A DNA stretch of 64,000 nt, taken from assembly GCA_963711735.1 (NCBI GenBank), contig CAVQFA010000003.1, positions 284,367 through 348,366 on the forward strand, read 5' to 3'. The position numbers and the translations under genes were made by a program. Positions 14,545 to 62,224 of the stretch are shown here, piece after piece; position 1 is the first letter of the stretch; each line of letters begins with the position of its first letter. The notes beneath the pieces are model-generated. The model was not told the DNA's origin and ran no database searches. It saw nothing but the letters and a program-made list of their open reading frames with translations. This DNA comes from Candidatus Gottesmanbacteria bacterium (lineage in GTDB: Bacteria; Patescibacteriota; Microgenomatia; UBA10105; UBA927).

Positions 14545-14811
14545 ATGGCAGCGAATTTGTTTGTCGGCAATCTGGCTTACACTACAGATGATGCCAAACT
14601 TGCTGAAGCATTTGCTCAGGCAGGAACAGTCGCGTCAGCCAAAGTCATCAAAGATAAATATTCAGGCCGTTCACGCGGTTTTGGATTTGTCGAGATGTCT
14701 TCTGACGAGGAAGCCAAAAAAGCGATAGAGCTTTTTAACGGTAAAGACCTCGATGGCAGACCACTGGTTGTTAACGAGGCACGTCCTCCGCAACAGACAG
14801 CACGCACGTAA
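14545..14811 (+). CDS. RRM-type RNA-binding protein
   Basis: RNP-2 LFVGNL and RNP-1 RGFGFVEM are present. RBS GAAAGGAG sits upstream. Confidence 0.85.
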   Translation: MAANLFVGNLAYTTDDAKLAEAFAQAGTVASAKVIKDKYSGRSRGFGFVEMSSDEEAKKAIELFNGKDLDGRPLVVNEARPPQQTART

Positions 14812-17515: not shown

Positions 17516-18247
17516 TCACTCCAGGAGTGGAGAATACATAAATTTGAATGTGGAGAGGATTTGGTCTGTGCGTTCTTTATTTACTAGTGTTGGTTCTGAA
17601 GTAAATAATGATATTTTTGTATTTCCTTTAAGGATATACGTAACATATCGGTTTCTTTCTCCCTTTATCTGTCCTTTAATTGCTTTATACCCATCTATGG
17701 TAGTATCTTCAATAGAATTAACAAGTAAGTCGCTTTTTAATTGCTGAAACTCAGACTCAGTTATTATAGACGTCTTTTGCCAAATAATATAAAGCTGATA
17801 AGCATTTTTCGATGGAACAGAATTATTGAACGAATAATTCTGAATATAGGCAGTAAAATCGTTGCCTGGATTTGACACTTCAGAGTGGACGGATAATTCA
17901 GGAGGAACTTTAAAATTTAACTGTAAAGGTGAAAATGTATATGATTGCCAATCTGCTGTGAGGTTTGGAACAGAAGCAGGGCATGGTGCAAATTCACAAT
18001 TAGGACCGGTTCTCCCAACAGAAGACCCGTCAGGACAGAGCTTTGCTTCCATAGTACAAGCCGTTGGGGCAGGGAATGATAATGGTTTGGTAGCCAAATA
18101 ATATCCACCTATACCACCAATACCGAAAAGTAATACCCCTAAGAGCACAATAACTAAAGGATGTATGGATTTTTTTGTTTGCATTGGAATTACAGGGGGA
18201 GAAGGTTCCTGAGGAATGGGTTGAACCGGTTGTGGATTATCAGTCAT
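17516..18247 (-). CDS. membrane-anchored extracellular hypothetical protein
   Basis: N-terminal Pro-rich region, one TM, then a Cys-rich segment (C...C...C..C). Confidence 0.4.
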   Translation of the reverse strand: MTDNPQPVQPIPQEPSPPVIPMQTKKSIHPLVIVLLGVLLFGIGGIGGYYLATKPLSFPAPTACTMEAKLCPDGSSVGRTGPNCEFAPCPASVPNLTADWQSYTFSPLQLNFKVPPELSVHSEVSNPGNDFTAYIQNYSFNNSVPSKNAYQLYIIWQKTSIITESEFQQLKSDLLVNSIEDTTIDGYKAIKGQIKGERNRYVTYILKGNTKISLFTSEPTLVNKERTDQILSTFKFMYSPLLE

Positions 18248-20995: not shown

Positions 20996-23260
20996 TTACC
21001 GTATGATTACGGGTTTTTTGGCATCATGATTACAATCTAAACACCACATGGATAACTCATCGCGAAGTACATCATGATCCTGAATTTCAACATTTTCAGG
21101 AGCTGTTGTCTGTGTGGCAAGATCACCGGTTGTTTTATCTATAGGGACACTCATACGTAACTGTTCACGGGCTGTGGGAACTGTGCCTTTTATGAAGTAC
21201 TCATACCGTGTTGAACATCCCTTATCTCCTTCGCTATTAGGAGGAAGCAAACCGGTCGTGGTGCACACTTCGGCACCGACAATACCTTCGGGTTGTTTTG
21301 GCCAGATATCAGGTTGATTTTCAAGTACCCGCTTCATGAGCTTATTCCATATCGGAGCTGCTCCCGTTACTCCGGAAACAAGCGCCTGGTTCATGCGGGT
21401 GTTATTGTTGTTGCCTACCCAAACTGCGATGAGAAATTGCGGTGTATACCCGATCGTCCAATTATCCCGGTGTTCATCCGTTGTTCCGGTTTTAACCGAT
21501 ACCGCGTGTCCCGGGATAACAAGCGCTGAGTTTGTCCCGAACATGGCAGCGCGGGCGTTGTTATCCAGAAGTATGTGTGAAATGAGATACGCGGTTTCCG
21601 CGGAAAGAACCCTCGGTCCGGAGATAAGAATCTGTGAAGGTACGGACTTTTTCAGATTAGGATCTTTCTGTTCAAAGAGTATCTTTCCCTGGTTGTCCGT
21701 TACCTTTGTGATAGCTATCAGGTCTTTCCGTACTCCTGAATTGGCAAATACGGAAAATGCTGTTGCCATATCCGTCATCCTTACCTCTCCGCCGCCGAGA
21801 GTCAGAGAGAGTCCGTAGTTTTTGGGATCTTTGATAGTAGAAAGTCCGAACGCACTTGCCGATGCGACAAACCCTTCGACAGAATTTATCTTTAACATTT
21901 TTACCGCCGGAATGTTAAAAGAATTACCGAGTGCAAACCGAAGCTGCTGGGGTCCGTGAAATTGGAAATCATAGTTGTTCGGACAGTAGAGGGGTTGGTT
22001 GATGGATGCAAAACATGTCGGTACGTCCAGAAACATTGTTGCGGGTGTAACCCTTTTTTGCTCAATACCGATGCCGTAATTTATGGGTTTTATGGAAGAA
22101 CCGGGTTGCCTGAGAGCTGTGGTGACATTGAAACTGCCGGAGGGTGTGGCGAAATAATCCACACTTCCGACCATGGCGAGTATTTCACCAGTTGCCGGTT
22201 TGGTTATAAGTGCAGCGCCGTTTGATACGTCATAATGCTCTAAATCTTTAATTTCCGCCGCCACTGTTGCCTGTGCATAATCCTGGAGTGTAATATCCAG
22301 AGTTGTTGTGACATTGAGTCCGCCGCGTGCCACGAGTGTCTCGCCGAACTCTTCAACAAGTTTTTCTTTTACGTACATGATAAAATGCGGTGCCCTTATG
22401 TTTGTCTGTTTGGCATATACGAGTGCTTCCTTTTTTGCCTTTTCAGCTTCAGCTTGTGTTATATATCCGTCCTCGACCATACGACGTAAAACTTCCACTT
22501 GACGGTTTTTTGCCAATTCCGGATGGGCACCGAACGGGGAGTAATAAGTAGGAGCCTGAGGAAGACCGGCAAGAAGAGATGCTTCAGCAAGTGTCAGATC
22601 TTTAGCACGCTTGGCGAAATACTTTTCCGCTGCTGTTTCTATACCCCACGCAGTGCCGCCGTACGGAACCTGGTTGAGGTATAACTCAAGTATTTTATCC
22701 TTGGGATAGAGAAGTTCCACCCAAAAAGAAAGGACAATTTCACGGATTTTACGGACGACACTCCTTTGCGGTGTAAGGAGTGCGGTTTTTACTAACTGCT
22801 GTGTGATAGTTGACCCTCCCTGCAGACGTTTTCCCGTGATGGTTGCAACAACCGCCCGGAGCATTCCTCCGATAGGACTTACACCACCGTGCTTATAAAA
22901 ATTTTTATCTTCTATGGATATGGTAGCTTCGCGGACATAAAGCGGAATTTCTGAAAGCGTAACGGCTGTTCTGTTTTCCTCTACAAATATATCGTGGAGA
23001 AGTATACCGTTTCTGTCATATATTTTTGTAGCAAGAGGAACAGAATATGTTTCAAGTCCTTTTGGTGAAGGAAGGTCTTTGAAAATGAGAAGATATGACC
23101 CTATGATAAGTGACAGAGGCAGAAGCCAAAATGCCCATTTGATACGTTGACCGTGTACCCGGGGAATTGGTAACGCAAAACGGGAAACGAAGGATTTGAC
23201 ACCCTTCAGGGAGATTTTATGAAATCCTTTTTCAATCCTTTGTCGAAATGTAGACGTCAT
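20996..23260 (-). CDS. class A penicillin-binding protein (paralog)
   Basis: IEDKNFYKHGG, RQPGSSIKP and KTGTT are present, and the protein is collinear with the upstream PBP. Confidence 0.9.
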   Translation of the reverse strand: MTSTFRQRIEKGFHKISLKGVKSFVSRFALPIPRVHGQRIKWAFWLLPLSLIIGSYLLIFKDLPSPKGLETYSVPLATKIYDRNGILLHDIFVEENRTAVTLSEIPLYVREATISIEDKNFYKHGGVSPIGGMLRAVVATITGKRLQGGSTITQQLVKTALLTPQRSVVRKIREIVLSFWVELLYPKDKILELYLNQVPYGGTAWGIETAAEKYFAKRAKDLTLAEASLLAGLPQAPTYYSPFGAHPELAKNRQVEVLRRMVEDGYITQAEAEKAKKEALVYAKQTNIRAPHFIMYVKEKLVEEFGETLVARGGLNVTTTLDITLQDYAQATVAAEIKDLEHYDVSNGAALITKPATGEILAMVGSVDYFATPSGSFNVTTALRQPGSSIKPINYGIGIEQKRVTPATMFLDVPTCFASINQPLYCPNNYDFQFHGPQQLRFALGNSFNIPAVKMLKINSVEGFVASASAFGLSTIKDPKNYGLSLTLGGGEVRMTDMATAFSVFANSGVRKDLIAITKVTDNQGKILFEQKDPNLKKSVPSQILISGPRVLSAETAYLISHILLDNNARAAMFGTNSALVIPGHAVSVKTGTTDEHRDNWTIGYTPQFLIAVWVGNNNNTRMNQALVSGVTGAAPIWNKLMKRVLENQPDIWPKQPEGIVGAEVCTTTGLLPPNSEGDKGCSTRYEYFIKGTVPTAREQLRMSVPIDKTTGDLATQTTAPENVEIQDHDVLRDELSMWCLDCNHDAKKPVIIR

Positions 23261-32076: not shown

Positions 32077-32778
32077 TTATTCGCGAATATCAGGGAAGCC
32101 GACAACGTTCGCCTTCCTCCAGATGAAGTAGTTGAAAAATACTTTTGGGATGCGAAGGAGAAGCCCTATACCTTCATTACCGCGGCGACCAGATGCCCGG
32201 ACATATTCGGATTGTGTAAAAACAATTTTCCCTACAGTCATGAGTCTTCGTGCTATCTCTATGTCTTCCGCAATTTTGAAATGCTCCGGAAATCCTCCGA
32301 CTGCAATTGCTTTTTCTCTCCAAAACGCCATATTTTGACCCGTCGCCATAGGCATCCGGAATAAAAAAAACAACAAACTGTTAAAGAACGGTTGGAAGAT
32401 ATTTACATAGATTTTATACCACCATGGTCCGTCAGGAACGCGGAATCCGCCGAAATACCCGACAACGCCGGGTTTCGTCAAATAGCGCTCAATTCGTTCA
32501 AGCCAATCGGGTGGCGGGGTAGCGTCCGCGTCAGTAAACGCGATAATATCGCCTGCTGCTTTCTGAAGGCCTTTCTGTCTGCTGTACCCGATAGTCAGTT
32601 TCGGAGCGTTTAATACACTCGCTCCTTCTTTTTCTGCAATTTCTTTCGTTTTGTCTGTTGATGATGCGTTGACGACAATAATTTCGTCGGGCTTACGGGT
32701 TTGAATATTCAGAGCCTGAAGTGTGAGGAGAATGAGTTTTTCTTCGTTGTACGCGGGAATAACAACAGATATTTTCAT
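32077..32778 (-). CDS. GT2 glycosyltransferase (dolichyl/polyprenyl-phosphate sugar synthase-like)
   Basis: VVIPAYNEE and FTDADATPPPDW (DxD) are present. Confidence 0.8.
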   Translation of the reverse strand: MKISVVIPAYNEEKLILLTLQALNIQTRKPDEIIVVNASSTDKTKEIAEKEGASVLNAPKLTIGYSRQKGLQKAAGDIIAFTDADATPPPDWLERIERYLTKPGVVGYFGGFRVPDGPWWYKIYVNIFQPFFNSLLFFLFRMPMATGQNMAFWREKAIAVGGFPEHFKIAEDIEIARRLMTVGKIVFTQSEYVRASGRRGNEGIGLLLRIPKVFFNYFIWRKANVVGFPDIRE

Positions 32779-42866: not shown

Positions 42867-43061
42867 ATGCTGAAAAATATTATTGCACCGGTACAGGCAT
42901 GGCTCCTCTATCAGGGAAAATGCGTAGGTTGCGGAAAAACACTTCCCCGGAGGGATGACGCCACCGGATATAAGCAGGTGACATGTTCATGCGGAAGGAT
43001 ATATATGTATGATGCAACTGCAAAAAAATTCAGGAGGGCAACTTTTGAAGAAATTAAATAA
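42867..43061 (+). CDS. small zinc-ribbon-like protein (CxxC...CxC)
   Basis: GKCVGCGK ... CSCGRIY; 64 aa. Confidence 0.3.
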   Translation: MLKNIIAPVQAWLLYQGKCVGCGKTLPRRDDATGYKQVTCSCGRIYMYDATAKKFRRATFEEIK

Positions 43062-44025
43062 TTTGGGTTTTGTGCGCATAGGAATATTAATAATCGTATT
43101 ATTTACGGTTGTATTAGGATTTCTGGTGTGGTGGAAAGACGCTGCAGGACCCGTAGATAACAAAGACATGCAACCGATTCTTTTCAAAATTCAAAAAGGA
43201 GAAGGTGTAAAAAGTATCATATACCGGCTTTCAAAAGAACGGCTTATACGAAGTCCGTCTGCATTTTTTTTGTATATTAAACTGTCCCACCTGGAAAAAG
43301 ATTTACAGGCCGGTGATTTCCGTTTAAACAGAGGAATGGATTCCAACACCATTGCCCAGGAGTTAACCCACGGTACTTTGGATGTATGGGTTACGTTACT
43401 TGAAGGGTGGCGTAAAGAAGAAGTTGCCGCCCGTCTGTCAAAAGATTTAGATATTCCGGAATCGGAATTTATTCTTCATTCTAAGGAAGGATATCTTTTT
43501 CCTGATACATATTTAATTCCTAAAGATGCCACAGCCGGGGCAGTATTGGAAGTTCTTACAAATAATTTCAACAGCAAAGTAACAGAAGAAATCCTCCGGG
43601 GTTTTGCTGCAGAGCATTTGTCCACATCCGATGCAGTGATTCTTGCATCTATTGTTGAAAGGGAAGGCAGAACTGAGGAAGACCGTCCTATGATAGCCGG
43701 AATTTTAATGAATCGTTTGCAAAAAGATTGGCCTTTACAGGCTGATGCAACACTACAATATATATTAGGATATCAGGCGAATGAAAAGACATGGTGGAAG
43801 AAAGAATTAACGGACTACGACAAAAAAATTGATTCTCCGTACAATACCTATCTATATAAAGGTTTGCCGAAAGGACCCATATCAAATCCCGGACTTTCGT
43901 CAATTCGGGCAGTTGCTTTCCCAAAAAAATCCGAATATATGTTTTATCTACATGATAAAAGTGGTTTTGTCCATTACGCTAAAACGGCAGAAGAACATGC
44001 AATGAACGTGTCGAAATATTTATAA
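43009..44025 (+). CDS. mltG: endolytic murein transglycosylase MltG (YceG family)
   Basis: TM anchor plus the YceG signature SPYNTYLYKGLPKGPISNPG. Confidence 0.8.
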   Translation: MMQLQKNSGGQLLKKLNNLGFVRIGILIIVLFTVVLGFLVWWKDAAGPVDNKDMQPILFKIQKGEGVKSIIYRLSKERLIRSPSAFFLYIKLSHLEKDLQAGDFRLNRGMDSNTIAQELTHGTLDVWVTLLEGWRKEEVAARLSKDLDIPESEFILHSKEGYLFPDTYLIPKDATAGAVLEVLTNNFNSKVTEEILRGFAAEHLSTSDAVILASIVEREGRTEEDRPMIAGILMNRLQKDWPLQADATLQYILGYQANEKTWWKKELTDYDKKIDSPYNTYLYKGLPKGPISNPGLSSIRAVAFPKKSEYMFYLHDKSGFVHYAKTAEEHAMNVSKYL

Positions 44026-44070
44026 TCTTAATATTTCTTTCGGGATTTAAATAATTGTTAAAACTCCACC

Positions 44071-44098
44071 TTGACAATTCCGGAATACATCATATAAT
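44071..44098 (+). promoter_or_regulatory. sigma70-like promoter for rpoBC (TTGACA-16nt-TATAAT)
   Basis: Consensus hexamers at 44071-44076 and 44093-44098. Confidence 0.45.
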
Positions 44099-44122
44099 AA
44101 TTACTAATTTGATAGCCTTTAT

Positions 44123-44153
44123 GAGGCGAACGTTCATTGTTCGCTTCTTTTTT
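44123..44153 (+). promoter_or_regulatory. terminator-like hairpin + T6 in the rpoB leader (putative attenuator)
   Basis: GAGGCGAAC / GTTCGCTTC 9-bp stem (one G-U), 7-nt loop, then TTTTTT, lying 35 nt before the rpoB ATG. Confidence 0.35.
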
Positions 44154-44187
44154 CGTTTATATCGTCCATTCTGCAGAATTTATTTTA

Positions 44188-47100
44188 ATGGCAAAAGCTG
44201 ATCCACAACCAACCAGAGATTATTGGGGAGCGAATTATTCAAATATTCCTCAATTGGATTTAACTCTTGTACAACGAGAGTCTTATCAATGGTTTTTGGA
44301 AGAAGGGATAAGAGAACTTCTTTCCGAAGTTACCCCCATAACTGATTTTACGGGTAAGAATTGGGAATTGGTATTCGGAGATTATTTTTTTGGAAAGCCA
44401 AGACTCACACCAATAATTGCCCGTGAAAAAGGTTTGACGTATGACATGCCACTTCGCGTTACGGCAACACTGACAAATAAGCAAAACGGCCATCATGTAA
44501 CACAGGAAGTATTCTTGGGAGATATTCCTGCGATGACAGAACATGGTACGTTTATTATTAACGGCATTGAACGTTGTGTGGTTAATCAGCTCGTGCGTTC
44601 TCCGGGGATTTATTTTACGGGTACCGTAGATTCCACAACCGGAAGGACATTGTACAGCGCTGAAATCCGTCCGATGCACGGAAGTTGGCTTGAATTTATT
44701 ACGACAAGAAACGACGTCATAATGGTAAGAATTGACAGACGCAGAAAATTTGTTGCATCCACATTTCTTCGGGCTATTGGTCTCGGAACAAATGAAGAAA
44801 TTCAAAAAGCATTTCAGGACATTGAAGTAAATGGTGACCATAATTTTATCGAATCAACATTGTCAAAAGATACGACAACAAATCAGACAGAGGCTATTTT
44901 GGAGCTGTACCGGAAACTTCGGCCCGGCGAACCAATAGTGCTGGAAAATGCTCAGGAACTCATGCGAAGCATGTTTTTTGATTACCGGAGATATTCTCTT
45001 GAACGGGTAGGCAGATATAAAATGAATAAGAAATTGGAAATTGCTGTATCGAATCAAAAGAATAATTGGGTTTTGACAAAAGAAGATATTTTAGGAAGTG
45101 TAAGATATTTAATCAATTTAGCTAATGGTAAAGGTGACGTTGATGATATTGATCATCTCGGAAACCGCAGGGTTCGCAGGGTAGGTGAACTGGTTGCTAC
45201 AAACGCATTCAGGGTTGGTTTATTGCGTCTCGAGCGGTCGGTCAGAGAAAAAATGAGTTTAGCTGGTCCTGCAGCCATAGATTTAACTCCAACGCAGCTT
45301 ATCAACGCGCGTCCGATTATTGCTGCAATAAATGATTTCTTCCGTACAAGCCAATTATCTACAATACTCGATCAAACCAATCCATTATCAGAAGTTGATA
45401 ATCTCAGACGTCTCACTGTTATGGGCGTCGGTGGAATTTCCCGGGAGCGGGCCTCGTTTTCCATCCGTGATATCAATGCATCTCAATATTCACGGATTTG
45501 TCCGGTCAGAAGTCCTGAAGGACCGAATATCGGGCTTGTAACATACATGTCCCTCTTTACCAGGGTAAATGAATTCGGTTTTCTGGAAGCTCCTTACCGA
45601 AAAGTAGAAAAAGTGAAATCAGGCGAAACCGTAAGGATGAGAATTACCGATGAAGTGGTATATATGGATGCCAGTGATGAGCAATATCACCATATAACAC
45701 ACGCATCAATATCTATAGATCCTAAAGGATATATTCTGGATGAACGGGTTCCTACCAGGTATAAGGGAGAATTTTTGGAAACAGACGTGACAAATATAGA
45801 ATTTATAGATTCTGTTCCAAAGCAGGTAGTGGGGGGTCCGGCATCGTTAATTCCGTTTATTGCGCATGACGAAGCAAACCGTGCGCTTATGGGAACACAC
45901 ATGCAATGTCAGTCCGTGCCATTATTAATTCCTCAATCGCCGGTTATCGGGACCGGGATGGAAAGTCCGATTGCATCTGCAATGGACAGAGTTATCCGGG
46001 CGAAAGACGATGCAACAGTAACGTTTGCTGACGGTTCTATGGTTGTTGTGGAGACGAAGGATAAACAGAAAGAGACGTATCTGATAGAAAAATTTAAAAG
46101 ATCAGCACAATCCACAAGCTACAATCAAAAGGTGCTTGTGAAAACAGGAGAAAAGGTAAGTGCAAATACAGTACTCGTGGACGGACCGGCATGTGACGGG
46201 GGCGAACTGGCGCTCGGATCAAATTTGGTTATTGCATATATGAGTTTTGACGGACTTGGATACGAGGACGCAATTGTTATATCAGACCGGTTAGTGAGAG
46301 AGGATGTCCTGACAAGCATTAATATAGAAGAACACGAAGCAAGCGTAGTGGATACAAAACTCGGACCTGAAGAAACTACCAGAGATATTCCGAATGTGGG
46401 TGAGGAAGCATTAAGAAATCTGGACGCGGACGGTATAGTCGTTGTTGGTGCTGAAGTCGGTCCCAACGATATTCTTGTTGGTAAGATTGCACCAAAAGGC
46501 GAAACTGAACTTACAGCAGAAGAAAGATTGCTACGGGCAATTTTCGGAGAAAAAGCCCGTGAAGTGCGGGACACAAGCCTTCGCATGCCGCATGGAGAAA
46601 GAGGAACAGTCATTGAAGTGAAAATACTGGATAAAGAAAAGGGTGATGAATTGGAGCCAGGTACCAACAGAAAAATAATCGTACGCGTTGCACAAATCAG
46701 AAAAGTAGTAGTCGGGGATAAACTTGCTGGACGACACGGAAATAAAGGTGTTATTTCAAAGATCGTGCCACAGGCAGATATGCCGTATATGTCTGACGGC
46801 ACAGTTGTAGATATAATAATTTCTCCTCTTTCCGTATTGTCCCGTATGAATTTAGGTCAACTACTTGAGGCACACCTGGGTTTTGCGGCATCAAAGCTGA
46901 ATAAAAAAATCGCATTACCGGTTTTTGAACATATTTCGGAGGAGAAAATTACAGACATGCTTAAAAAGGCAAGCCTTTCTCTTGACGGTAAAAGTGAGTT
47001 GTATGACGGACGAACCGGAGAGTTGTTTAAAGAGCGGGTTGTGGTAGGAATTGAATATGTCATGAAACTGATTCACATGGTAGAAGATAAAACGCATGCG

Positions 47101-47616
47101 CGTTCAACTGGACCATATTCACTTGTTACCCAGCAACCTCTCGGAGGAAAAGCGCAAATGGGCGGACAGAGATTGGGAGAAATGGAAGTTTGGGCGTTAG
47201 AATCTCATAGAGCTTCACATGTCCTTCAGGAAATGCTCACAATTAAATCAGATGACGTTGTAGGAAGAGCTAAGGCTTTTGAGGCTATTGTAAAAGGGAC
47301 GGAAATTCCGGCATCAACAGTTCCGGAATCATTTAAAGTTTTAGTTAAAGAATTACAGGCTTTAGGATTAAATGTTATTCCAACCGGCGTAGTTACTGCC
47401 AAACCGGTAAGTTCAACGCAATCTGATCAACCGGTTGTTCCACAACCATCATCTCAGACATCAAACCCGGTTCCTCCACAAACTTCAGTACCCAACGATG
47501 TGAAAGATGACACTAAAGAGGAAGTTGCGATCGTTCCTGAGATTATCAGTGAACCGGAAGTTCTTAAGGAAGATGTCAAAGCAATTGAAAATCCTCATTC
47601 AGAGGGGGAGGCATAG
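44188..47616 (+). CDS. rpoB: DNA-directed RNA polymerase subunit beta, with ~100-aa low-complexity C-terminal tail
   Basis: Full RpoB domains present. The ATG at 44188 (MAKADPQPTRDYWG...) is preferred over the 44137 frame extension. Confidence 0.95.
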   Translation: MAKADPQPTRDYWGANYSNIPQLDLTLVQRESYQWFLEEGIRELLSEVTPITDFTGKNWELVFGDYFFGKPRLTPIIAREKGLTYDMPLRVTATLTNKQNGHHVTQEVFLGDIPAMTEHGTFIINGIERCVVNQLVRSPGIYFTGTVDSTTGRTLYSAEIRPMHGSWLEFITTRNDVIMVRIDRRRKFVASTFLRAIGLGTNEEIQKAFQDIEVNGDHNFIESTLSKDTTTNQTEAILELYRKLRPGEPIVLENAQELMRSMFFDYRRYSLERVGRYKMNKKLEIAVSNQKNNWVLTKEDILGSVRYLINLANGKGDVDDIDHLGNRRVRRVGELVATNAFRVGLLRLERSVREKMSLAGPAAIDLTPTQLINARPIIAAINDFFRTSQLSTILDQTNPLSEVDNLRRLTVMGVGGISRERASFSIRDINASQYSRICPVRSPEGPNIGLVTYMSLFTRVNEFGFLEAPYRKVEKVKSGETVRMRITDEVVYMDASDEQYHHITHASISIDPKGYILDERVPTRYKGEFLETDVTNIEFIDSVPKQVVGGPASLIPFIAHDEANRALMGTHMQCQSVPLLIPQSPVIGTGMESPIASAMDRVIRAKDDATVTFADGSMVVVETKDKQKETYLIEKFKRSAQSTSYNQKVLVKTGEKVSANTVLVDGPACDGGELALGSNLVIAYMSFDGLGYEDAIVISDRLVREDVLTSINIEEHEASVVDTKLGPEETTRDIPNVGEEALRNLDADGIVVVGAEVGPNDILVGKIAPKGETELTAEERLLRAIFGEKAREVRDTSLRMPHGERGTVIEVKILDKEKGDELEPGTNRKIIVRVAQIRKVVVGDKLAGRHGNKGVISKIVPQADMPYMSDGTVVDIIISPLSVLSRMNLGQLLEAHLGFAASKLNKKIALPVFEHISEEKITDMLKKASLSLDGKSELYDGRTGELFKERVVVGIEYVMKLIHMVEDKTHARSTGPYSLVTQQPLGGKAQMGGQRLGEMEVWALESHRASHVLQEMLTIKSDDVVGRAKAFEAIVKGTEIPASTVPESFKVLVKELQALGLNVIPTGVVTAKPVSSTQSDQPVVPQPSSQTSNPVPPQTSVPNDVKDDTKEEVAIVPEIISEPEVLKEDVKAIENPHSEGEA

Positions 47617-47624
47617 GAACATTT

Positions 47625-50600
47625 ATGGATAAAAAAGCCACATTTGCAAATATAGTTGATTTTACAGGGTTAAAAATTAAACTAGCTTCGCCGGAAGAGA
47701 TAAAGGCGTGGTCATACGGAGAAGTAACTAAACCGGAAACGATAAATTATCGTACACTAAAACCGGAAAAAGACGGTTTATTCGACGAACGTATTTTTGG
47801 ACCGACAAAAGACTGGGAATGTTATTGCGGAAAATATAAACGGATTCGGTACAGAGGTATTATCTGTGATAAGTGCGGTGTTGAAGTGACTCAAAGTAAA
47901 GTACGTCGTGAAAGAATGGGACACATATCGCTGGCGGCTCCTGTTGTACATGTCTGGTTCTTTAAAGGTGCACCTTCCAAATTATCTCTTCTTCTTGATA
48001 TTAGTCCACGGGCATTGGAAGGAGTAATTTATTTTGCACAGTATCTAGTAGTGAAAGTAGATGAGGAAAAGAAAAAAGAAATTCTCGAAAAAATTATTGA
48101 ATCAGGAAACATCCGTATAAAAGAAGTTGAAAACCGATATAAAGAAAATATTGACCAAAAAAAGGATCAGTTTGCCAAAGAAAAATCAAATATTAAGGAT
48201 AAAGTAAAAGGTTCAGAAGCGAGAGACTTGGCAGCATCAGAGCTTACGTTAAAAGAAAAGCAGGAAATAAATGCATCGGATGCACAGCTTGAACAGGAAA
48301 AACAGAAAGTGAAAGAAGTTGTTGATTCCCTTATTTCTATTGTGAAGGGAATACACCAGTTTGCAACAATTACAGAGGATGAATACCTTCGCCTTTTTGA
48401 ATATGATGCAACATCATGCTTTACCGTAGCCATGGGTGCTGAAGCAGTATCAGAAGTAATTAAAAAACTTGATTTAGATAAAATAGCTGCGGACTTACGG
48501 GAAGAGATTCGGACAAGTTCAGGACAACGACATATTAAGGCAACGAAGAGGCTGCGTGTTGTTGACGGAATCCGAAAAGCTGCGGTGAATCCGTCATGGA
48601 TGATTATTAACACCTTGCCGGTTATTCCTCCTGATTTACGGCCGATGGTACAGTTAACCGGCGGACGTTTTGCCACAAGTGATTTAAATGATTTATACCG
48701 CCGTGTTATCAATAGAAATAACCGTCTTCGCCACCTGATGGATTTAGGTGCTCCTGAGATAATTCTCAGAAATGAAAAACGCATGCTTCAGGAAGCGGTC
48801 GACAGTCTTATTGATGCTACACAACGTCCGTCATCACGTGCGGTTATTCAGCCCTTGCGTTCTCTTTCTGATATGCTTCGGGGCAAACAGGGACGTTTCA
48901 GACAGAATTTACTCGGTAAAAGAGTAGATTATTCAGGCAGGTCAGTTATTGTCGTCGGTCCTGATTTAGCATTGACGCAATGCGGTATTCCGAAAGAAAT
49001 GGCTCTTGAGATGTTTAAACCGTTTGTATTAAGAGAACTTATCGTACGCGGAATAGCTCCGAATGTTAAAAACGCTAAAAATGTTCTTGAAAAAAGAACA
49101 CCTGAAGTTTTTGATATTTTGGAAGAAATAACGAAAAATCATCCGGTGCTTCTCAACCGCGCGCCCACACTTCATAAACTTGGAATTCAGGCATTTTACC
49201 CAATTCTTATAGAAGGTTCTGCTATACGCATTCATCCGTGTGTGTGCGCAGGATATAATGCGGATTTTGACGGAGATCAGATGGCTGTCCACATCCCGTT
49301 ATCAAAAGAATCGCAGGAAGAGGCCCGGACTCTCATGCTTCCGACTCATAATTTATTAAAACCGGCAGACGGATCTCCGATTACAGTTCCAAATAAAGAA
49401 ATGGTTTTAGGTTGTTATTATATTACGACAATCAATTCTTCATATAATATCAAGGATGTTGATGCGCTTCCAAAATATGGGAGCGTTCAGGACGCAATAT
49501 ACGATTGGCAAAGCGGAGGCATCGACATCCGGCAACCTATACGTGTTAACAGAGAAAATGAATATTTAACTACATCTTTAGGACGTATCCTTTTTAATGA
49601 ACGTTTGCCTCAGGCACTTCAGTTTATCAATGAACCTGTAAAAGCATCAATGATTAAAACAATAATCACAAAAGCTCTTTCTCTTTTTTCAAAGGAAGAA
49701 GTGGTGAAACTTATCGATGCAATAAAAAATATCGGTTTTTGGGGAGCAACAATATCCGGAGGTTTATCTGTTTCGGTATTTGATAATCATATAATTAAAG
49801 AAAAATCAAACATCATTAAAGAAACCGAAGAGAGAGTAAAAGTTGTAGAAAATAACTATTTTCAGGGGCTTATAACTCTCGAAGAAAAGAAACGGTTATC
49901 AAATGAAATATGGATTGAGATCACTGAAAAAATTGCCAATATGACCTGGGAGAATTTGAAAGAAACGAACCCGGTGAAAATGATTATTGAATCAGGAGGA
50001 GCACGCGCATCAAAAGATCAATTGAAACAGTTATGTGCAGTCAAGGGACTTGTAGTTGATCCATTGGGCAAAATTGTGGAACTTCCGACTAAATCGAATT
50101 ATCGTGAAGGACTGTCGATTTTTGAATACGTTACCAGTACCCGTGGTTCACGCAAAGGTTTGACGGATTCAGCATTAAAAACTGCAGATGCTGGATATTT
50201 AACCAGAAGACTTGTTGATGTGGCACATGACATGATTATCCGAATGGAAGATTGTGGCACTGAAGAAGGGTTTGAAATTCATCGTCAGGAAGACCGTCAA
50301 ACACCTTTTATAAACCGAATTATCGGACGGATTGCGGCTACCAATATTGTTGTTCCCGGAGGAAAGAAAGTTATTGTCCAGAAGGGTGAATACATAACTG
50401 AGGAACACGCAAAACTGATTGATGAACATGAAGTGAAATCCGTAAGCGTACGCTCACCGATTACATGCGGAGCAATGGTTGGTATGTGTGCACAATGTTA
50501 CGGACGTGATTTTTCTACAACACAACCTGTAGAGATTGGCGTTCCTGTTGGCGTTGTAGCAGCCCAGTCTATCGGTGAACCGGGAACTCAACTCACCATG

Positions 50601-51353
50601 CGCGTACGTCATGCCGGAGGTATAGTCGGATTGGACGTCACCCAAGGTCTTCCCCGTGTGGAAGAACTTTTTGAAATTCGGACACCCCGGAATATGTCAC
50701 CCATATCGGAAATAGCCGGTAAGGCGGACGTCGAAGAAACCGAGCACGGATACAAAGTCACAATCCGGAACACTTCGATAAAACCTGCAGAAGAGCGGGA
50801 ATACATGATACCACTCACATCAGAGCTGAAAGTAAAAAACGGCGATCTTATTTCTACCGGGGATCAATTAGCAAACGGTAATTTGGATATTAAAGAAGTT
50901 TTACAGGTTCGGGGACTTCGAGGTGCACAAAAATATTTGATCACTGAAATCCAAAGAGTATATGAACTACAGGGTATCATGATTGCGGATAAACATTTTG
51001 AGGTTATAGTTCGCAAGATGAGTGATAAAGTGCGTATCGATAACTCAGGAGACACGACTTTACTTCCCGGCGAGCTGATTGACAGATCCAAATTCCAGGA
51101 AGAAAATGCACGGGTTCTGTCCCAGGGGGGTGAACCGGCAACAGCACAAATTATTATCCTTGGTATTACACGTGCATCGTTATATACGGAGTCGTGGTTG
51201 TCTGCAGCATCATTCCAGGAAACGACGAACGTTCTGACGGATGCCGCTCTTGCCGGCAAGGAAGATAAGTTGCTGGGTCTTAAAGAAAACGTTATAATCG
51301 GACGACTCATTCCCGTATCACCTGAGCGTGCAATTATTGGTATTAAACCATAG
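47625..51353 (+). CDS. rpoC: DNA-directed RNA polymerase subunit beta'
   Basis: Zn finger [20 protein letters not shown] and the catalytic loop NADFDGDQM. Confidence 0.95.
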   Translation: [1242 protein letters not shown]

Positions 51354-51374: not shown

Positions 51375-51812
51375 ATGCCGACAATAAATCAATTAGTCAG
51401 AAAAGGAAGAAAATTTAAATCAAAAAAGATAAAGGCAACAGCGCTTCGAAAGTTTTTTAATGCAAAAGACCGTTTAATGAAGCAAATGCCCTCACCGTTT
51501 AAACGCGGAGTTGTGACTGTCGTCAAAACTATGACGCCAAAAAAACCTAATTCCGCACTCAGAAAAATTGCACGTGTCCGTTTATCAAATAAACAGGAAG
51601 TTACTGCATATATTCCGGGAATCGGTCATGAATTGACAGAACACGCAATAGTATTAGTTCGGGGAGGCAGAGTCCCTGATCTTCCCGGAGTAAAGTATCA
51701 TATCGTCCGGGGTAAGTATGATTCAACCGGAGTGGCAAACAGGAAAAAAGGCAGGAGCCGTTACGGAACAAAGAGAGGAAGTACAGGACCCGTTACCGCT
51801 GCCGCCAGTTAA
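51375..51812 (+). CDS. rpsL: 30S ribosomal protein S12 (extended, 145 aa)
   Basis: [23 protein letters not shown] and [13 protein letters not shown] are present. Confidence 0.95.
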
Positions 51813-51817
51813 TTTAT

Positions 51818-52297
51818 ATGCCGAGAGCAGGAAAAATCATCAAAAAAATTTCAGAACCCGATCCGGTTTACGGTAACCGTCTAGTTACGCGGTTGGTCAA
51901 CCGTATTATGGAACGCGGGAAAAAGACAGTCGCACAAGGGCTGGTATACCGAGCATTTGAAGTAATCAAAGAGAAAGGCATGGAAGATCCTATCAAAGTA
52001 CTGGATAATGCCGTAAATACAGTAGGTCCTAAAATAGAAGTTCGGCCCAGGAGAGTCGGGGGGGCTTCATACCAGGTTCCGATGGAAGTCAGGGGTGATA
52101 GGCGGGTAGCTCTTGCTTTACGGTGGATCGTAAGTTTCGCAAAAAAAAGATCAAATAAGGAGTATAAAACATATGCTGATAAGTTAGCTGCTGAGCTTAT
52201 TGATGCTGCAAACGGCGTCGGCGATGCAATAAAAAAACGGGATACGGTACACCGTATGGCCGAAGCAAACAAAGCATTTGCTCATTTCCGGTGGTAA
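51818..52297 (+). CDS. rpsG: 30S ribosomal protein S7
   Basis: MPRAGKIIKK... 159 aa with S7 core conservation. Confidence 0.95.
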   Translation: MPRAGKIIKKISEPDPVYGNRLVTRLVNRIMERGKKTVAQGLVYRAFEVIKEKGMEDPIKVLDNAVNTVGPKIEVRPRRVGGASYQVPMEVRGDRRVALALRWIVSFAKKRSNKEYKTYADKLAAELIDAANGVGDAIKKRDTVHRMAEANKAFAHFRW

Positions 52298-52424: not shown

Positions 52425-53738
52425 TTAACGATACAATTTCCAATCTCCGAAGACTTCATTTTTATAGACAGTTATACCATCGATACGAATCATTTTTCCC
52501 GGAGGTACATTTCGGATGAGACGTACAACAATTTGATTCTCGAGTAACGCTCGGGAAACACCTTTCATGTCCGGGTATAGGGATAGTCCAATGTACGATC
52601 TGTCCGGAATGCCGGATATAAAAGTACGGTATTTTAGTTGTCCGAGACGTATGAGCCGTTGGGATCTTTTCTTTGCGTTATATACTGATAAGGGCGCATA
52701 CTGTTTTTCCATAGACGAAGCTCTTGTATTTTTCCGGTTGCTGTAACGGAAGATATGAAACTTAGAGATAGGGTGAGTTTGCAGAAATGTGAAGGTTTCC
52801 TCAAAATTTTCTTCGGATTCACCCGGAAAACCCACAATAATATCAGTTCCTATAAGCGCATCGGGATTTACGGATGCAATCTGATTTATCCGCTCAGAAA
52901 TATATTTTTTTGTATATCCGCGGTTCATACGCAGTAAAATTTCGTCTGATGCAGATTGGATGGGAATGTGGAAAAAATGAACAAAACGATTATCATCAGA
53001 GTGATTTTTATACCACACAATAAATTCATCCGTGATACTCCACGGATGTAAAGAACCAAGACTCAGCCTGGAAACAGAGGTATTTTCCAATACGGCATCA
53101 AGAAGAATAGGCAATGATTCACCATGACCCCTCCCGATATATTCGGTATTTATTCCGGTAATGATAACTTCCTTTATTTTTGATTTATATGCACGTATGC
53201 ATTCAATAACTTCTTTTGATGATTTTGTTGTGGGTTTTCCACGAAGGTAAGGAACTATACAGTAAGAACAAAATCGTTCACATCCGTCCTGAACTTTCAG
53301 TATGAGTCTGCCGGAATCTATAAATTTATCACCTGCATTTTTTTGTTGTGTCGGTTTTATTTTTCCTGTATCTGAATGCTGTTCTGATGCTGTCGGCGGA
53401 ATGAGAAACGAGCGCAGGAGATACGGTATTTGCTGTTTGTCCGAATTGGAAACTAGAAGATCTGTCTCTCTCATACGGTAACGCTCAGTTTTCCATAATG
53501 TTGCCAGACATCCGGTAACGAGAAGTATGGTGTCAGGAAATTTTCTTCGGATACGACGTATGAACTGACGCGCCTCCCGTTCAGCTTTTCCCGTCACTGC
53601 ACACGTATTTATAATATACACGTCCGGTTTGTCATCCGAATAAATAAACCCAAATGCACGAAGCTTCCTGTCGATTGCTATTTTTTCAGCCTCGTTGACT
53701 CTGCACCCAAACGTAAAACTGGCAAATGAACGTTTCAC
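52425..53738 (-). CDS. radical-SAM methylthiotransferase, MiaB/RimO/MtaB family (possibly RimO, the S12 Asp-methylthiotransferase)
   Basis: MTTase N-domain cysteines (FGCRVN, NTCAV, TGC), radical-SAM CERFCSYCIVP, and a TRAM-like C-terminus. Confidence 0.8.
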   Translation of the reverse strand: MKRSFASFTFGCRVNEAEKIAIDRKLRAFGFIYSDDKPDVYIINTCAVTGKAEREARQFIRRIRRKFPDTILLVTGCLATLWKTERYRMRETDLLVSNSDKQQIPYLLRSFLIPPTASEQHSDTGKIKPTQQKNAGDKFIDSGRLILKVQDGCERFCSYCIVPYLRGKPTTKSSKEVIECIRAYKSKIKEVIITGINTEYIGRGHGESLPILLDAVLENTSVSRLSLGSLHPWSITDEFIVWYKNHSDDNRFVHFFHIPIQSASDEILLRMNRGYTKKYISERINQIASVNPDALIGTDIIVGFPGESEENFEETFTFLQTHPISKFHIFRYSNRKNTRASSMEKQYAPLSVYNAKKRSQRLIRLGQLKYRTFISGIPDRSYIGLSLYPDMKGVSRALLENQIVVRLIRNVPPGKMIRIDGITVYKNEVFGDWKLYR

Positions 53739-58096: not shown

Positions 58097-58165
58097 TTCG
58101 TACGTTTTATTACTGGACACCCGCAGGTAAATTTTATACAATTGGATAAAGAGTTATGAAGCATT

Positions 58166-58194
58166 AGCTGCTTCGGAAACGGAGCAGTTTTTTG
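58166..58194 (+). terminator. rho-independent terminator ending the inserted operon
   Basis: CTGCTTC-GGAAAC-GGAGCAG stem-loop followed by TTTTTT. Confidence 0.55.
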
Positions 58195-58265
58195 TTGTTG
58201 CATAAAATTGTGCATGATTGATCGGGATTACTTTGAAATCATTTCGCAATGTATGCAAAGAAACT

Positions 58266-60371: not shown

Positions 60372-60512
60372 GCTATGTTAGAATGCTGTCACAGCAGCTG
60401 AGAAATTCAGTTGTGTTTTTCAGTTGGCAGTAAGGTATAAGTCAGATGGATTTTGTTTTCCGATTTTCGTAAAAGTTGATAAAATCGTGAAGACACTTCC
60501 AGAAAGGAATAT

Positions 60513-62064: not shown

Positions 62065-62192
62065 CTATACGATAAGGGGATCTATACTTGTCGTTTAAGA
62101 GATACTTTGGTATACTACACGGTTACAAAGGTATGGAGAAAAAGACTTCATATTTGTAAAACGGTATACCAAAAGTCTCGATTGAGATTCTC

Positions 62193-62219
62193 ACGACCTC
62201 AAATCGAGGTCGTTTTTTT
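62193..62219 (+). terminator. strong intrinsic terminator hairpin + T7 between rpsJ and rplC (with alternative antiterminator pairing)
   Basis: ACGACCTC-AAATC-GAGGTCGT 8-bp stem followed by TTTTTTT. CTCGAT at 62178-62183 can alternatively pair with ATCGAG at 62203-62208. Confidence 0.55.
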
Positions 62220-62224
62220 GTTCT

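Follow-up and report, generated by a model that had tools for sequence, protein, structure and literature searches.

A conserved promoter, hairpin and U tract in the rpoB leader of Candidatus Gottesmanbacteria: a candidate promoter-proximal partial terminator

The stretch of DNA analyzed here, 64 kb in length and referred to below as the window, comes from Candidatus Gottesmanbacteria, an uncultured, groundwater-type member of the Patescibacteria, or Candidate Phyla Radiation (CPR). It contains rpoB and rpoC, which encode the β and β′ subunits of RNA polymerase (RNAP). Immediately upstream of rpoB lies a consensus promoter, followed at a fixed spacing by an RNA hairpin and a U tract, and this leader is strongly conserved among relatives and linked exclusively to rpoB. 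Our favored interpretation, which we hold to be somewhat more probable than its alternatives taken together, is that the leader is a promoter-proximal intrinsic-terminator attenuator of the rpoBC-rpsLG operon, i.e., a partial terminator that would act as a brake on RNAP synthesis. To our knowledge, RNAP homeostasis is understood in only a few Proteobacteria, and almost nothing is known of gene regulation in uncultured Patescibacteria.

Promoter, hairpin and conservation of the rpoB leader

A first-pass annotation of the window, made from the DNA letters alone, had assigned to rpoBC a consensus promoter of its own, and the hexamers TTGACA and TATAAT do indeed read as claimed, with a 16-nt spacer, at 44071–44098. 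The exact arrangement TTGACA-N16–18-TATAAT occurs a single time in the 64 kb, against an expectation of 0.05, and it is the sole 12/12 site within 38–53 kb. To place it in a wider context, one genome per species was scanned with the RpoB N-terminus, which returned 80 loci at 62–84% identity, nearly all of them from Candidatus Gottesmanbacteria, Microgenomates or Patescibacteria. The window and the 76 of these loci that could be scored form a set of 77 leaders, and the promoter is present in every one, with a score of 12/12 in 60, 11/12 in 16 and 10/12 in the remaining one. We take rpoB-rpoC-rpsL-rpsG to be a separate operon driven by this perfect promoter of the sigma-70 consensus type. Because the leaderless genes of the window (described below) begin 6–7 nt past a TATAAT-like box, transcription is expected to start at ~44105–44106, which gives rpoB a leader of ~83 nt.

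The same annotation had pointed to a terminator-like hairpin in this leader, with a 9-bp stem from 44123 and six T residues, and both were located where it had placed them. The stem strand GAGGCGAAC (44123–44131) pairs with GTTCGCTTC (44139–44147), with one G·U. Folding of the leader with RNAfold lengthened the hairpin to 10 bp (5 of them G-C) closed by a UUCAU loop, at −14.3 kcal/mol (z = −3.7), a value that was equalled by none of 200 shuffles; the opposite strand folds more weakly (−9.5 kcal/mol). The hairpin is the best terminator-like match in 38–53 kb and is among the three strongest hairpin-plus-U sites of the window, where its core GGCGAACGTTCATTGTTCGCT occurs only once. It begins ~18–20 nt into the predicted transcript, of which it would occupy ~+18 to +45. 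Short motifs flank it on both sides. AATAG was found in 72 of 112 unique leaders, every time 12–14 nt past the −10 hexamer, and ATAGC or TAGCC in 66, the window itself having GAUAG at this point; 3′ to the hairpin, the tail motif GTCGTT is present in 81 of the 112. The leader therefore has what is looked for in an intrinsic terminator: on the plus strand, a stem-loop that is stable and contains G+C, directly 3′ of it a U-rich tract and, as described below, compensatory substitutions.

Conservation of the leader in related genomes, which the annotation had named as a check on its proposal, was found to be extensive. To the 77 leaders of the promoter set we added four from more distant Microgenomates (L146, L147, L148 and L152), and a hairpin, with a median free energy of −14 kcal/mol and in most cases beginning 20–26 nt past the −10 hexamer, was detected in 80 of these 81. 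At least six U residues are present in the 10 nt past the last G-C pair in 79 of the 80 leaders that carry it, and 62 of the 76 genome loci share essentially the hairpin sequence of the window. Among 109 unique sequences, the core of the hairpin is 97–100% conserved, and a 37-nt block, beginning 3 nt ahead of the core and reaching 33 nt past the core start, is 90–100% identical, whereas its flanks are at 30–50%. In the same genomes, the majority fraction within rpoB is 93% at second-codon positions and 54–58% at third-codon positions, so that synonymous sites are saturated. By this comparison, the hairpin block is more constrained than the RpoB protein itself.

The hairpin is also tied to the promoter and to rpoB, rather than to the genes upstream of them. 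The distance from the −10 hexamer to the hairpin is fixed at 24–29 nt, whereas that from the hairpin to the rpoB ATG can be anything between 31 and 133 nt, which argues for a transcriptional rather than a translational role. A translational operator for a ribosomal protein or RNAP, adjoining the rpoB ribosome-binding site, does not fit either the range of these distances or the intervening sequence, which is not conserved. Upstream neighbors of rpoB belong to at least 25 families, some of them on the opposite strand; with the spacing fixed, promoter, hairpin and rpoB thus travel as a unit. One such neighbor, in three more divergent Gottesmanbacteria (L073, L074 and L079), is a divergently oriented NusA-like gene (S1-KH-KH).

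An exact search of a metagenome collection retrieved the 20-mer GGCGAACGTTCATTGTTCGC from 65 contigs, and in all 61 that extend far enough downstream, rpoB follows on the same strand after 50–130 nt. Model R1, a covariance model built from leader sequences, scored 64.5 bits on the plus strand of the window and 17.8 bits on the minus strand; it gave exactly one strong plus-strand match per fragment, and no other match in the window had an E-value below 1. A dispersed repeat or regulon motif was rejected on these grounds, the hairpin being unique in the window and always located before rpoB in the testable contigs. Membership of a known RNA family was likewise rejected, since a search of the window against Rfam 15 gave no match at gathering thresholds. 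The best hit in 44050–44260, RsaH at 17.6 bits (threshold 50, E = 1.2), is a resemblance to the terminator only.

A perfect promoter with a terminator less than 50 nt behind it might also be expected of a small RNA (sRNA) gene. Its product would be an abundant ~45–50-nt RNA that acts in trans or, as with GraL, in cis, and rpoB would be expressed by read-through only. The conserved single-stranded 5′ segment could serve as a seed, and in E. coli the leader terminator of greA does yield the sRNA GraL (PMC6829880). However, the element was never found apart from rpoB, no target is known for it, and on sequence alone the predictions of an sRNA gene are inseparable from those of an attenuator. We regard it as improbable.

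Table 1. Coordinates of the rpoB leader, its operon and other features of the window
Feature	Coordinates	Strand	Remarks
mltG	43009–44025		stop at 44025; upstream neighbor of the rpoB promoter
−35 hexamer TTGACA	44071–44076	+	TTGAC(A) in 77/77 rpoB loci examined
−10 hexamer TATAAT	44093–44098	+	16-nt spacer after −35
Predicted transcription start	44105–44106	+	7–8 nt after −10; placed by analogy with start codons of leaderless genes, 6–7 nt past a TATAAT-like box
5′ leader motif GAUAGCC	44111–44117	+	consensus of relatives (S)AAUAGCC, at ~+6 to +13 of the transcript
Upstream open reading frame	44121–44201	+	26 codons, ATG 44121 to TGA 44199–44201; translation MRRTFIVRFFFRLYRPFCRIYFNGKS
Leader hairpin	44123–44147	+	10-bp stem with G·U pairs; core at 44125–44145
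U tract (T6) and U-rich tail UUUUUUCGUUUA	44148–44159	+	T6 at 44148–44153; consensus of relatives UUUUUGUCGUUC
rpoB	44188–47616	+	NCBIfam rpoB, 1397 bits
rpoC	47625–51353	+	assigned to the rpoB transcription unit by proximity
rpsL	51375–51812	+	with rpsG, probable end of the operon
rpsG	51818–52297	+	probable end of the operon; next gene, mtaB, convergent
Example starts with a TATAAT-like box	1391; 15937; 17516–18247 (−); 20996–23260 (−); 24226; 32077–32778 (−); 52425–53738 (−)		

RNA structure in distant relatives and alternatives to a terminator

Within the main clade the sequence of the hairpin is frozen and gives no information on compensatory change. In more distant clades, GAAC/GUUC is replaced by GUAC/GUAC (A-U to U-A in 8–9 sequences), the loops are 7–10 nt long and of unrelated sequence, and in one locus (L075) the stem is wholly different. 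When a 12-bp helix was scored over the alignment, 91.8% of cells were paired, compared to 42–61% with slid partners; double changes were present at four pairs (21 cells), and the observed covariation score was reached in none of 500 shuffles. In addition, the stem extensions contain conserved G·U pairs (GU in 66–68 sequences at two positions), which would be A·C mismatches on the other strand and which place the structure on the plus-strand RNA.

Eight contigs from Microgenomates still further removed, with a Levybacteria genome among them, were recovered through a protein index at 54–60% identity. In four of them (L146, L147, L148 and L152) a TTGACA-17/18-TATAAA promoter is followed after 25–37 nt by a hairpin of unrelated sequence, then by U7–8 and a G. 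L149 has two hairpins with U-rich tails past a TTGACA-16-TATTAT promoter, and L153 a hairpin and U tract ~35 nt before the ATG, with a weaker promoter (TTGCAA-17-TATAAT, 10/12) much further upstream. The order of promoter, hairpin and U tract thus survives over this distance, which is the signature of an intrinsic terminator. We observed that rpoB is called as consecutive short open reading frames in five of these long metagenome contigs (L146, L149, L150, L151 and L152); these are probably long-read frameshift errors and not real split genes.

These data also bear on two explanations in which the hairpin would have nothing to do with control of rpoB by RNA. The core is a perfect inverted repeat, GCGAAC-N7-GTTCGC, and might be the operator of a dimeric repressor acting as a roadblock; alternatively, it might simply be the terminator of mltG, as the interval from the mltG stop (44025) to the promoter contains no other. 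Against an operator is the variable loop length, as half-sites would be 7–10 nt apart depending on the clade, and the stem extensions need G·U pairs. As to mltG, the upstream gene is different or divergent in most relatives, whilst the spacing of promoter and hairpin is maintained. Together, variable neighbors, loop length and G·U pairs effectively exclude both explanations, to which we attach a very low probability.

A further alternative is that the hairpin is a stabilizing or processing element of the 5′ untranslated region, which would shield rpoBC mRNA from 5′-end-dependent decay or mark an RNase site, the U tract being a mere pairing partner of the purine-rich 5′ flank. That flank (AAGGAGG or AAAGAGG) can pair with CUUCUUU to give a helix of up to 13–14 bp. 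The conserved flanks may also form an outer helix, GAAUAGC/GUCGUUC; such pairing is seen in the predicted structure of L005, and over 72 sequences it involves 70.9% of cells. Covariation in this outer helix was nevertheless no greater than in shuffles (26 of 500 reached the observed value for paired cells, and 443 of 500 that for double-change pairs). Moreover, the U tracts of the window and of L146, L147, L148 and L152 outrun any possible pairing, and the hairpin is located ~18 nt from the predicted 5′ end rather than at it. We therefore judge a stabilizer unlikely, even with the two distant loci taken up in the next section that speak for it. A pseudoknot between the loop and the 5′ leader (GUUCA with UGAAU) was rejected on inspection of alignments A1 and A2, in which the leader switches between UGAAU and UCAAU without any change in the loop.

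Finally, the first-pass annotation had drawn attention to a 26-codon upstream open reading frame (uORF), and had likened the arrangement to ribosome- or protein-mediated attenuation of RNAP core-subunit expression. Translation confirmed the frame, which starts 2 nt before the stem, crosses the hairpin and ends at a TGA 9–11 nt inside rpoB, thereby overlapping the rpoB start by 14 nt out of frame. If it were translated, ribosomes passing through the hairpin could control termination. However, a stop-free frame of 26 codons is unremarkable by chance in such AT-rich DNA, and an ATG at this position and in this frame was found in only four of the 77 leaders (the window, L032, L039 and L047), with two more (L004 and L051) having one just 5′ of the hairpin in another frame. 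The encoded peptides have 14–29 codons and differing end points, with no regulatory codons, and no Shine–Dalgarno (SD) sequence precedes the ATG in any of the leaders that carry one. Nor is there an antiterminator: RNAalifold on 75 leaders, from the predicted start to ATG+20, returned the hairpin alone and no second conserved helix. We conclude that the uORF is, as judged from its distribution, a chance feature. As it is not conserved and no antiterminator was found, ribosome-mediated attenuation is rejected, and a leader-peptide attenuator is among the least probable of all the explanations considered. The broader suggestion of attenuation is plausible, because promoter and hairpin are conserved, at fixed spacing and independently of the upstream gene, as expected of an attenuator; the invariance of the sequence may hint at a version mediated by a protein or other factor.

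Proposed partial termination, known systems and a possible bound factor

In the model we favor, the strong promoter would start transcripts in which the hairpin and U tract form ~18–20 nt into the leader, and most polymerases would stop at ~+45 to +50. The fraction reading through would then set the synthesis of β and β′, and of ribosomal proteins S12 and S7. No leader peptide takes part in this model, nor does a second RNA fold, so the transcription machinery itself would have to exert control. Read-through would depend on RNAP, nucleoside triphosphates (NTPs) and NusA/NusG, and homeostatic feedback would be the result.

There is precedent for such a scheme. Partial Rho-independent terminators are found before rpoB in E. 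coli (tL7) and Pseudomonas aeruginosa (P26), where a reduction of RNAP activity, with rifampicin or through rpoB mutations, increases read-through and so buffers the abundance of RNAP (PMC4324240; PMC6181997, which cites Newman et al. 1982). Like the leader described here, tL7 and P26 consist of a terminator-like hairpin and U tract immediately before rpoB, with no leader peptide. In contrast, they are located between rplL and rpoB within a ribosomal-protein operon (rplKAJL-rpoBC in E. coli) and act on transcripts begun far upstream, whereas rpoB of Gottesmanbacteria is detached from rplJL and has its own consensus promoter, with the hairpin close behind the predicted start of transcription. 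Neither tL7 nor P26 is homologous to it in sequence, and extreme sequence conservation is no known feature of theirs. We view the Gottesmanbacteria leader as a likely functional analog of tL7 and P26, differently placed and not homologous, and regulation of read-through is proposed for it by that analogy.

Two other precedents are more general. The E. coli greA leader also couples promoter(s) to an intrinsic terminator ahead of a transcription-factor gene, which leads to short transcripts and autoregulation and requires cis leader sequence beyond the terminator structure itself (PMC6829880). The gene and the group of organisms are different, there is no sequence similarity, and GraL has a documented trans target, whereas none is known here. 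Terminators in 5′ untranslated regions that are conserved among relatives and have no recognized sensor were described by Naville and Gautheret (2010; PMC2965389); that study predates CPR genomes, and its main text contains no mention of rpoB.

Several observations weigh against the partial-terminator model. Termination itself, its partial extent and its feedback regulation are all deduced from anatomy and analogy, as is the predicted transcript end at ~44150–44156, and the feedback logic is borrowed from Proteobacteria. At three convergent gene ends examined, we found no canonical hairpin-plus-U terminator on the plus strand. In L150 and L151, a GGCGUAC hairpin directly follows the −10 hexamer, and its U tract is weak or absent; it looks more like a 5′-terminal stem-loop, which would favor the stabilizer described above. 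Lastly, a plain terminator does not account for a stem, a loop and flanking sequence that stay 90–100% identical amid saturated synonymous sites.

Together, the frozen hairpin and the fixed 5′ motif (S)AAUAGCC suggest a specific partner. It is conceivable, though we would give it no great weight, that the ~55-nt leader (5′ AAUAGCC, hairpin with loop GUUCAUU, and tail CUUCUUUUUGUCGUUC) is a lineage-specific cis-regulatory RNA read by the KH domains of NusA, by RNAP or by a CPR-specific factor, any of which would switch the terminator. The narrower proposal, in which hairpin, (S)AAUAGCC and CUUCUUUUUGUCGUUC make up a predicted binding site for NusA KH domains, another Nus factor, RNAP or a ribosomal protein that sets termination or antitermination, is more doubtful still; in one variant the site would resemble nut, and loading there would render RNAP processive for the 8 kb of the operon. 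The invariance, loop included (97–100% against 93% at rpoB second-codon positions), favors a bound factor, as does the fixed position of AAUAG where it occurs. The KH domains of Mycobacterium tuberculosis NusA bind an extended AUA-containing RNA of rrn boxC (PMC2724277), which the AUA-type motif resembles. Furthermore, nusA itself is the divergent neighbor in the three loci mentioned above, and in the same lineage the hairpin of the fusA leader (see below) is free to change, which implies that the rpoB hairpin is under an extra constraint.

The likeness to the nut sites of rrn operons and phage λ (boxA, boxB and boxC) consists of a promoter-proximal leader hairpin flanked by short, conserved single-stranded motifs. 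The order of elements is different here, though, and a U tract follows the hairpin. The boxA consensus (rrn UGCUCUUUA; λ CGCUCUUA), as taken from PMC2724277, is absent from the leader; CGCUUCUUU alone, with an extra U and within the stem, resembles GCUCUUUA loosely at most. In addition, the loop and 5′ motif are lost in the more distant clades that retain hairpin and U tract. No rRNA gene is present in the 64 kb window. For these reasons we take the resemblance to nut sites, boxC included, as a lead only, and continue to favor partial termination.

Neighboring genes, similar leaders and significance

The genes at the site are, in order, alaS, a gene of unnamed function, a sortase gene, an AMP/thymidine phosphorylase gene, mltG, rpoB, rpoC, rpsL, rpsG and the convergent mtaB, after whose orientation the operon probably ends with rpsG. 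The start of rpoB is the ATG at 44188–44190, with which the start in relatives aligns; the NCBIfam match runs from residue 14, which corresponds to profile position 7. An N-terminal extension from the TTG at 44137, where the listed open reading frame begins, was rejected because ATG 44188 matches relatives and in-frame upstream TTGs are sporadic. Gene order is unusual across 43009–63596. It is mltG, and not rplKAJL, that precedes rpoBC, and the str cluster is in two parts. Its rpsL-rpsG part comes directly after rpoC; the convergent mtaB and six unrelated genes (including a cas4-like nuclease gene and ogt) intervene before fusA-tuf-rpsJ-rplC-rplD, ~6 kb beyond the rpsL-rpsG part of the cluster.

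In many genes of the window a TATAAT-like box precedes the start codon by 6–7 nt, and few genes have an SD (examples in Table 1). This pattern suggests that leaderless mRNAs are widespread in this Gottesmanbacteria genome, and if they are as common as they seem, an rpoB leader of 83 nt stands out. In most relatives, the rpoB ATG is preceded at 8–10 nt by an SD-like AAGGA, GAGGA or GGGGA and then WTTATT (columns ~117–160 of alignment A1), which puts rpoB among the few SD-led genes of these genomes. The corresponding region of the window, GCAGAATTTATT (44165–44187), is a degenerate version. At 14545–14811 on the plus strand, inside what had appeared to be a 483-nt intergenic gap, there is a gene for a small (88 aa) RNA-binding protein of the RRM type with the RNP-1 motif RGFGFVEM.

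Leaders of similar build precede other genes of the window. That of fusA (58114–58205) has the geometry of the rpoB leader: a promoter-like TGGACA-17-TACAAT (58114–58142), then, 23 nt past the −10, a hairpin (58166–58189) followed by UUUUUGUUGUUGC. The start of EF-G is ATG 58266, and not the TTG at 58218 of the listed open reading frame. At the fusA locus of L127 the arrangement is retained, but the hairpin is another one (CCCGCuuguGCGGG) and the U tract abuts the ATG. The fusA-tuf spacer contains a hairpin followed by GUUUUUC (60394–60414). The rpsJ-rplC spacer (62065–62224) is unusually long (160 nt), folds strongly (−50.7 kcal/mol), has a promoter-like TTGTCG-17-TATACT within it, and ends in a hairpin (62193–62213) and U7 extending into the start codon of rplC. 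This spacer is a possible regulatory leader of the L3-L4 genes. Taken with the rpoB site, the best hairpin-plus-U motifs of the window all belong to transcription and translation genes, in whose leaders or spacers they lie (rpoB, fusA, fusA-tuf and rplC).

Partial terminators before rpoB are, in themselves, already known. What is new in the present candidate is the dedicated consensus promoter, the promoter-proximal position and the extreme conservation in a CPR lineage, in an element that has no Rfam entry. The leader is non-coding and clearly delimited, occurs in a single copy and is very strongly conserved ahead of the RNAP core genes throughout a CPR lineage, and its invariance at the sequence level points to a candidate interacting factor. 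It also provides a simple, testable model, a consensus promoter with a promoter-proximal partial terminator, that can be approached in vitro or through metatranscriptomes without cultivation. If the leader does act as a cis-regulatory RNA, it would be a dedicated autoregulatory sensor of RNAP synthesis in Patescibacteria, and may be one case of promoter-proximal terminators that gate the rpoBC, fusA-tuf and S10 operons in organisms with leaderless mRNAs.

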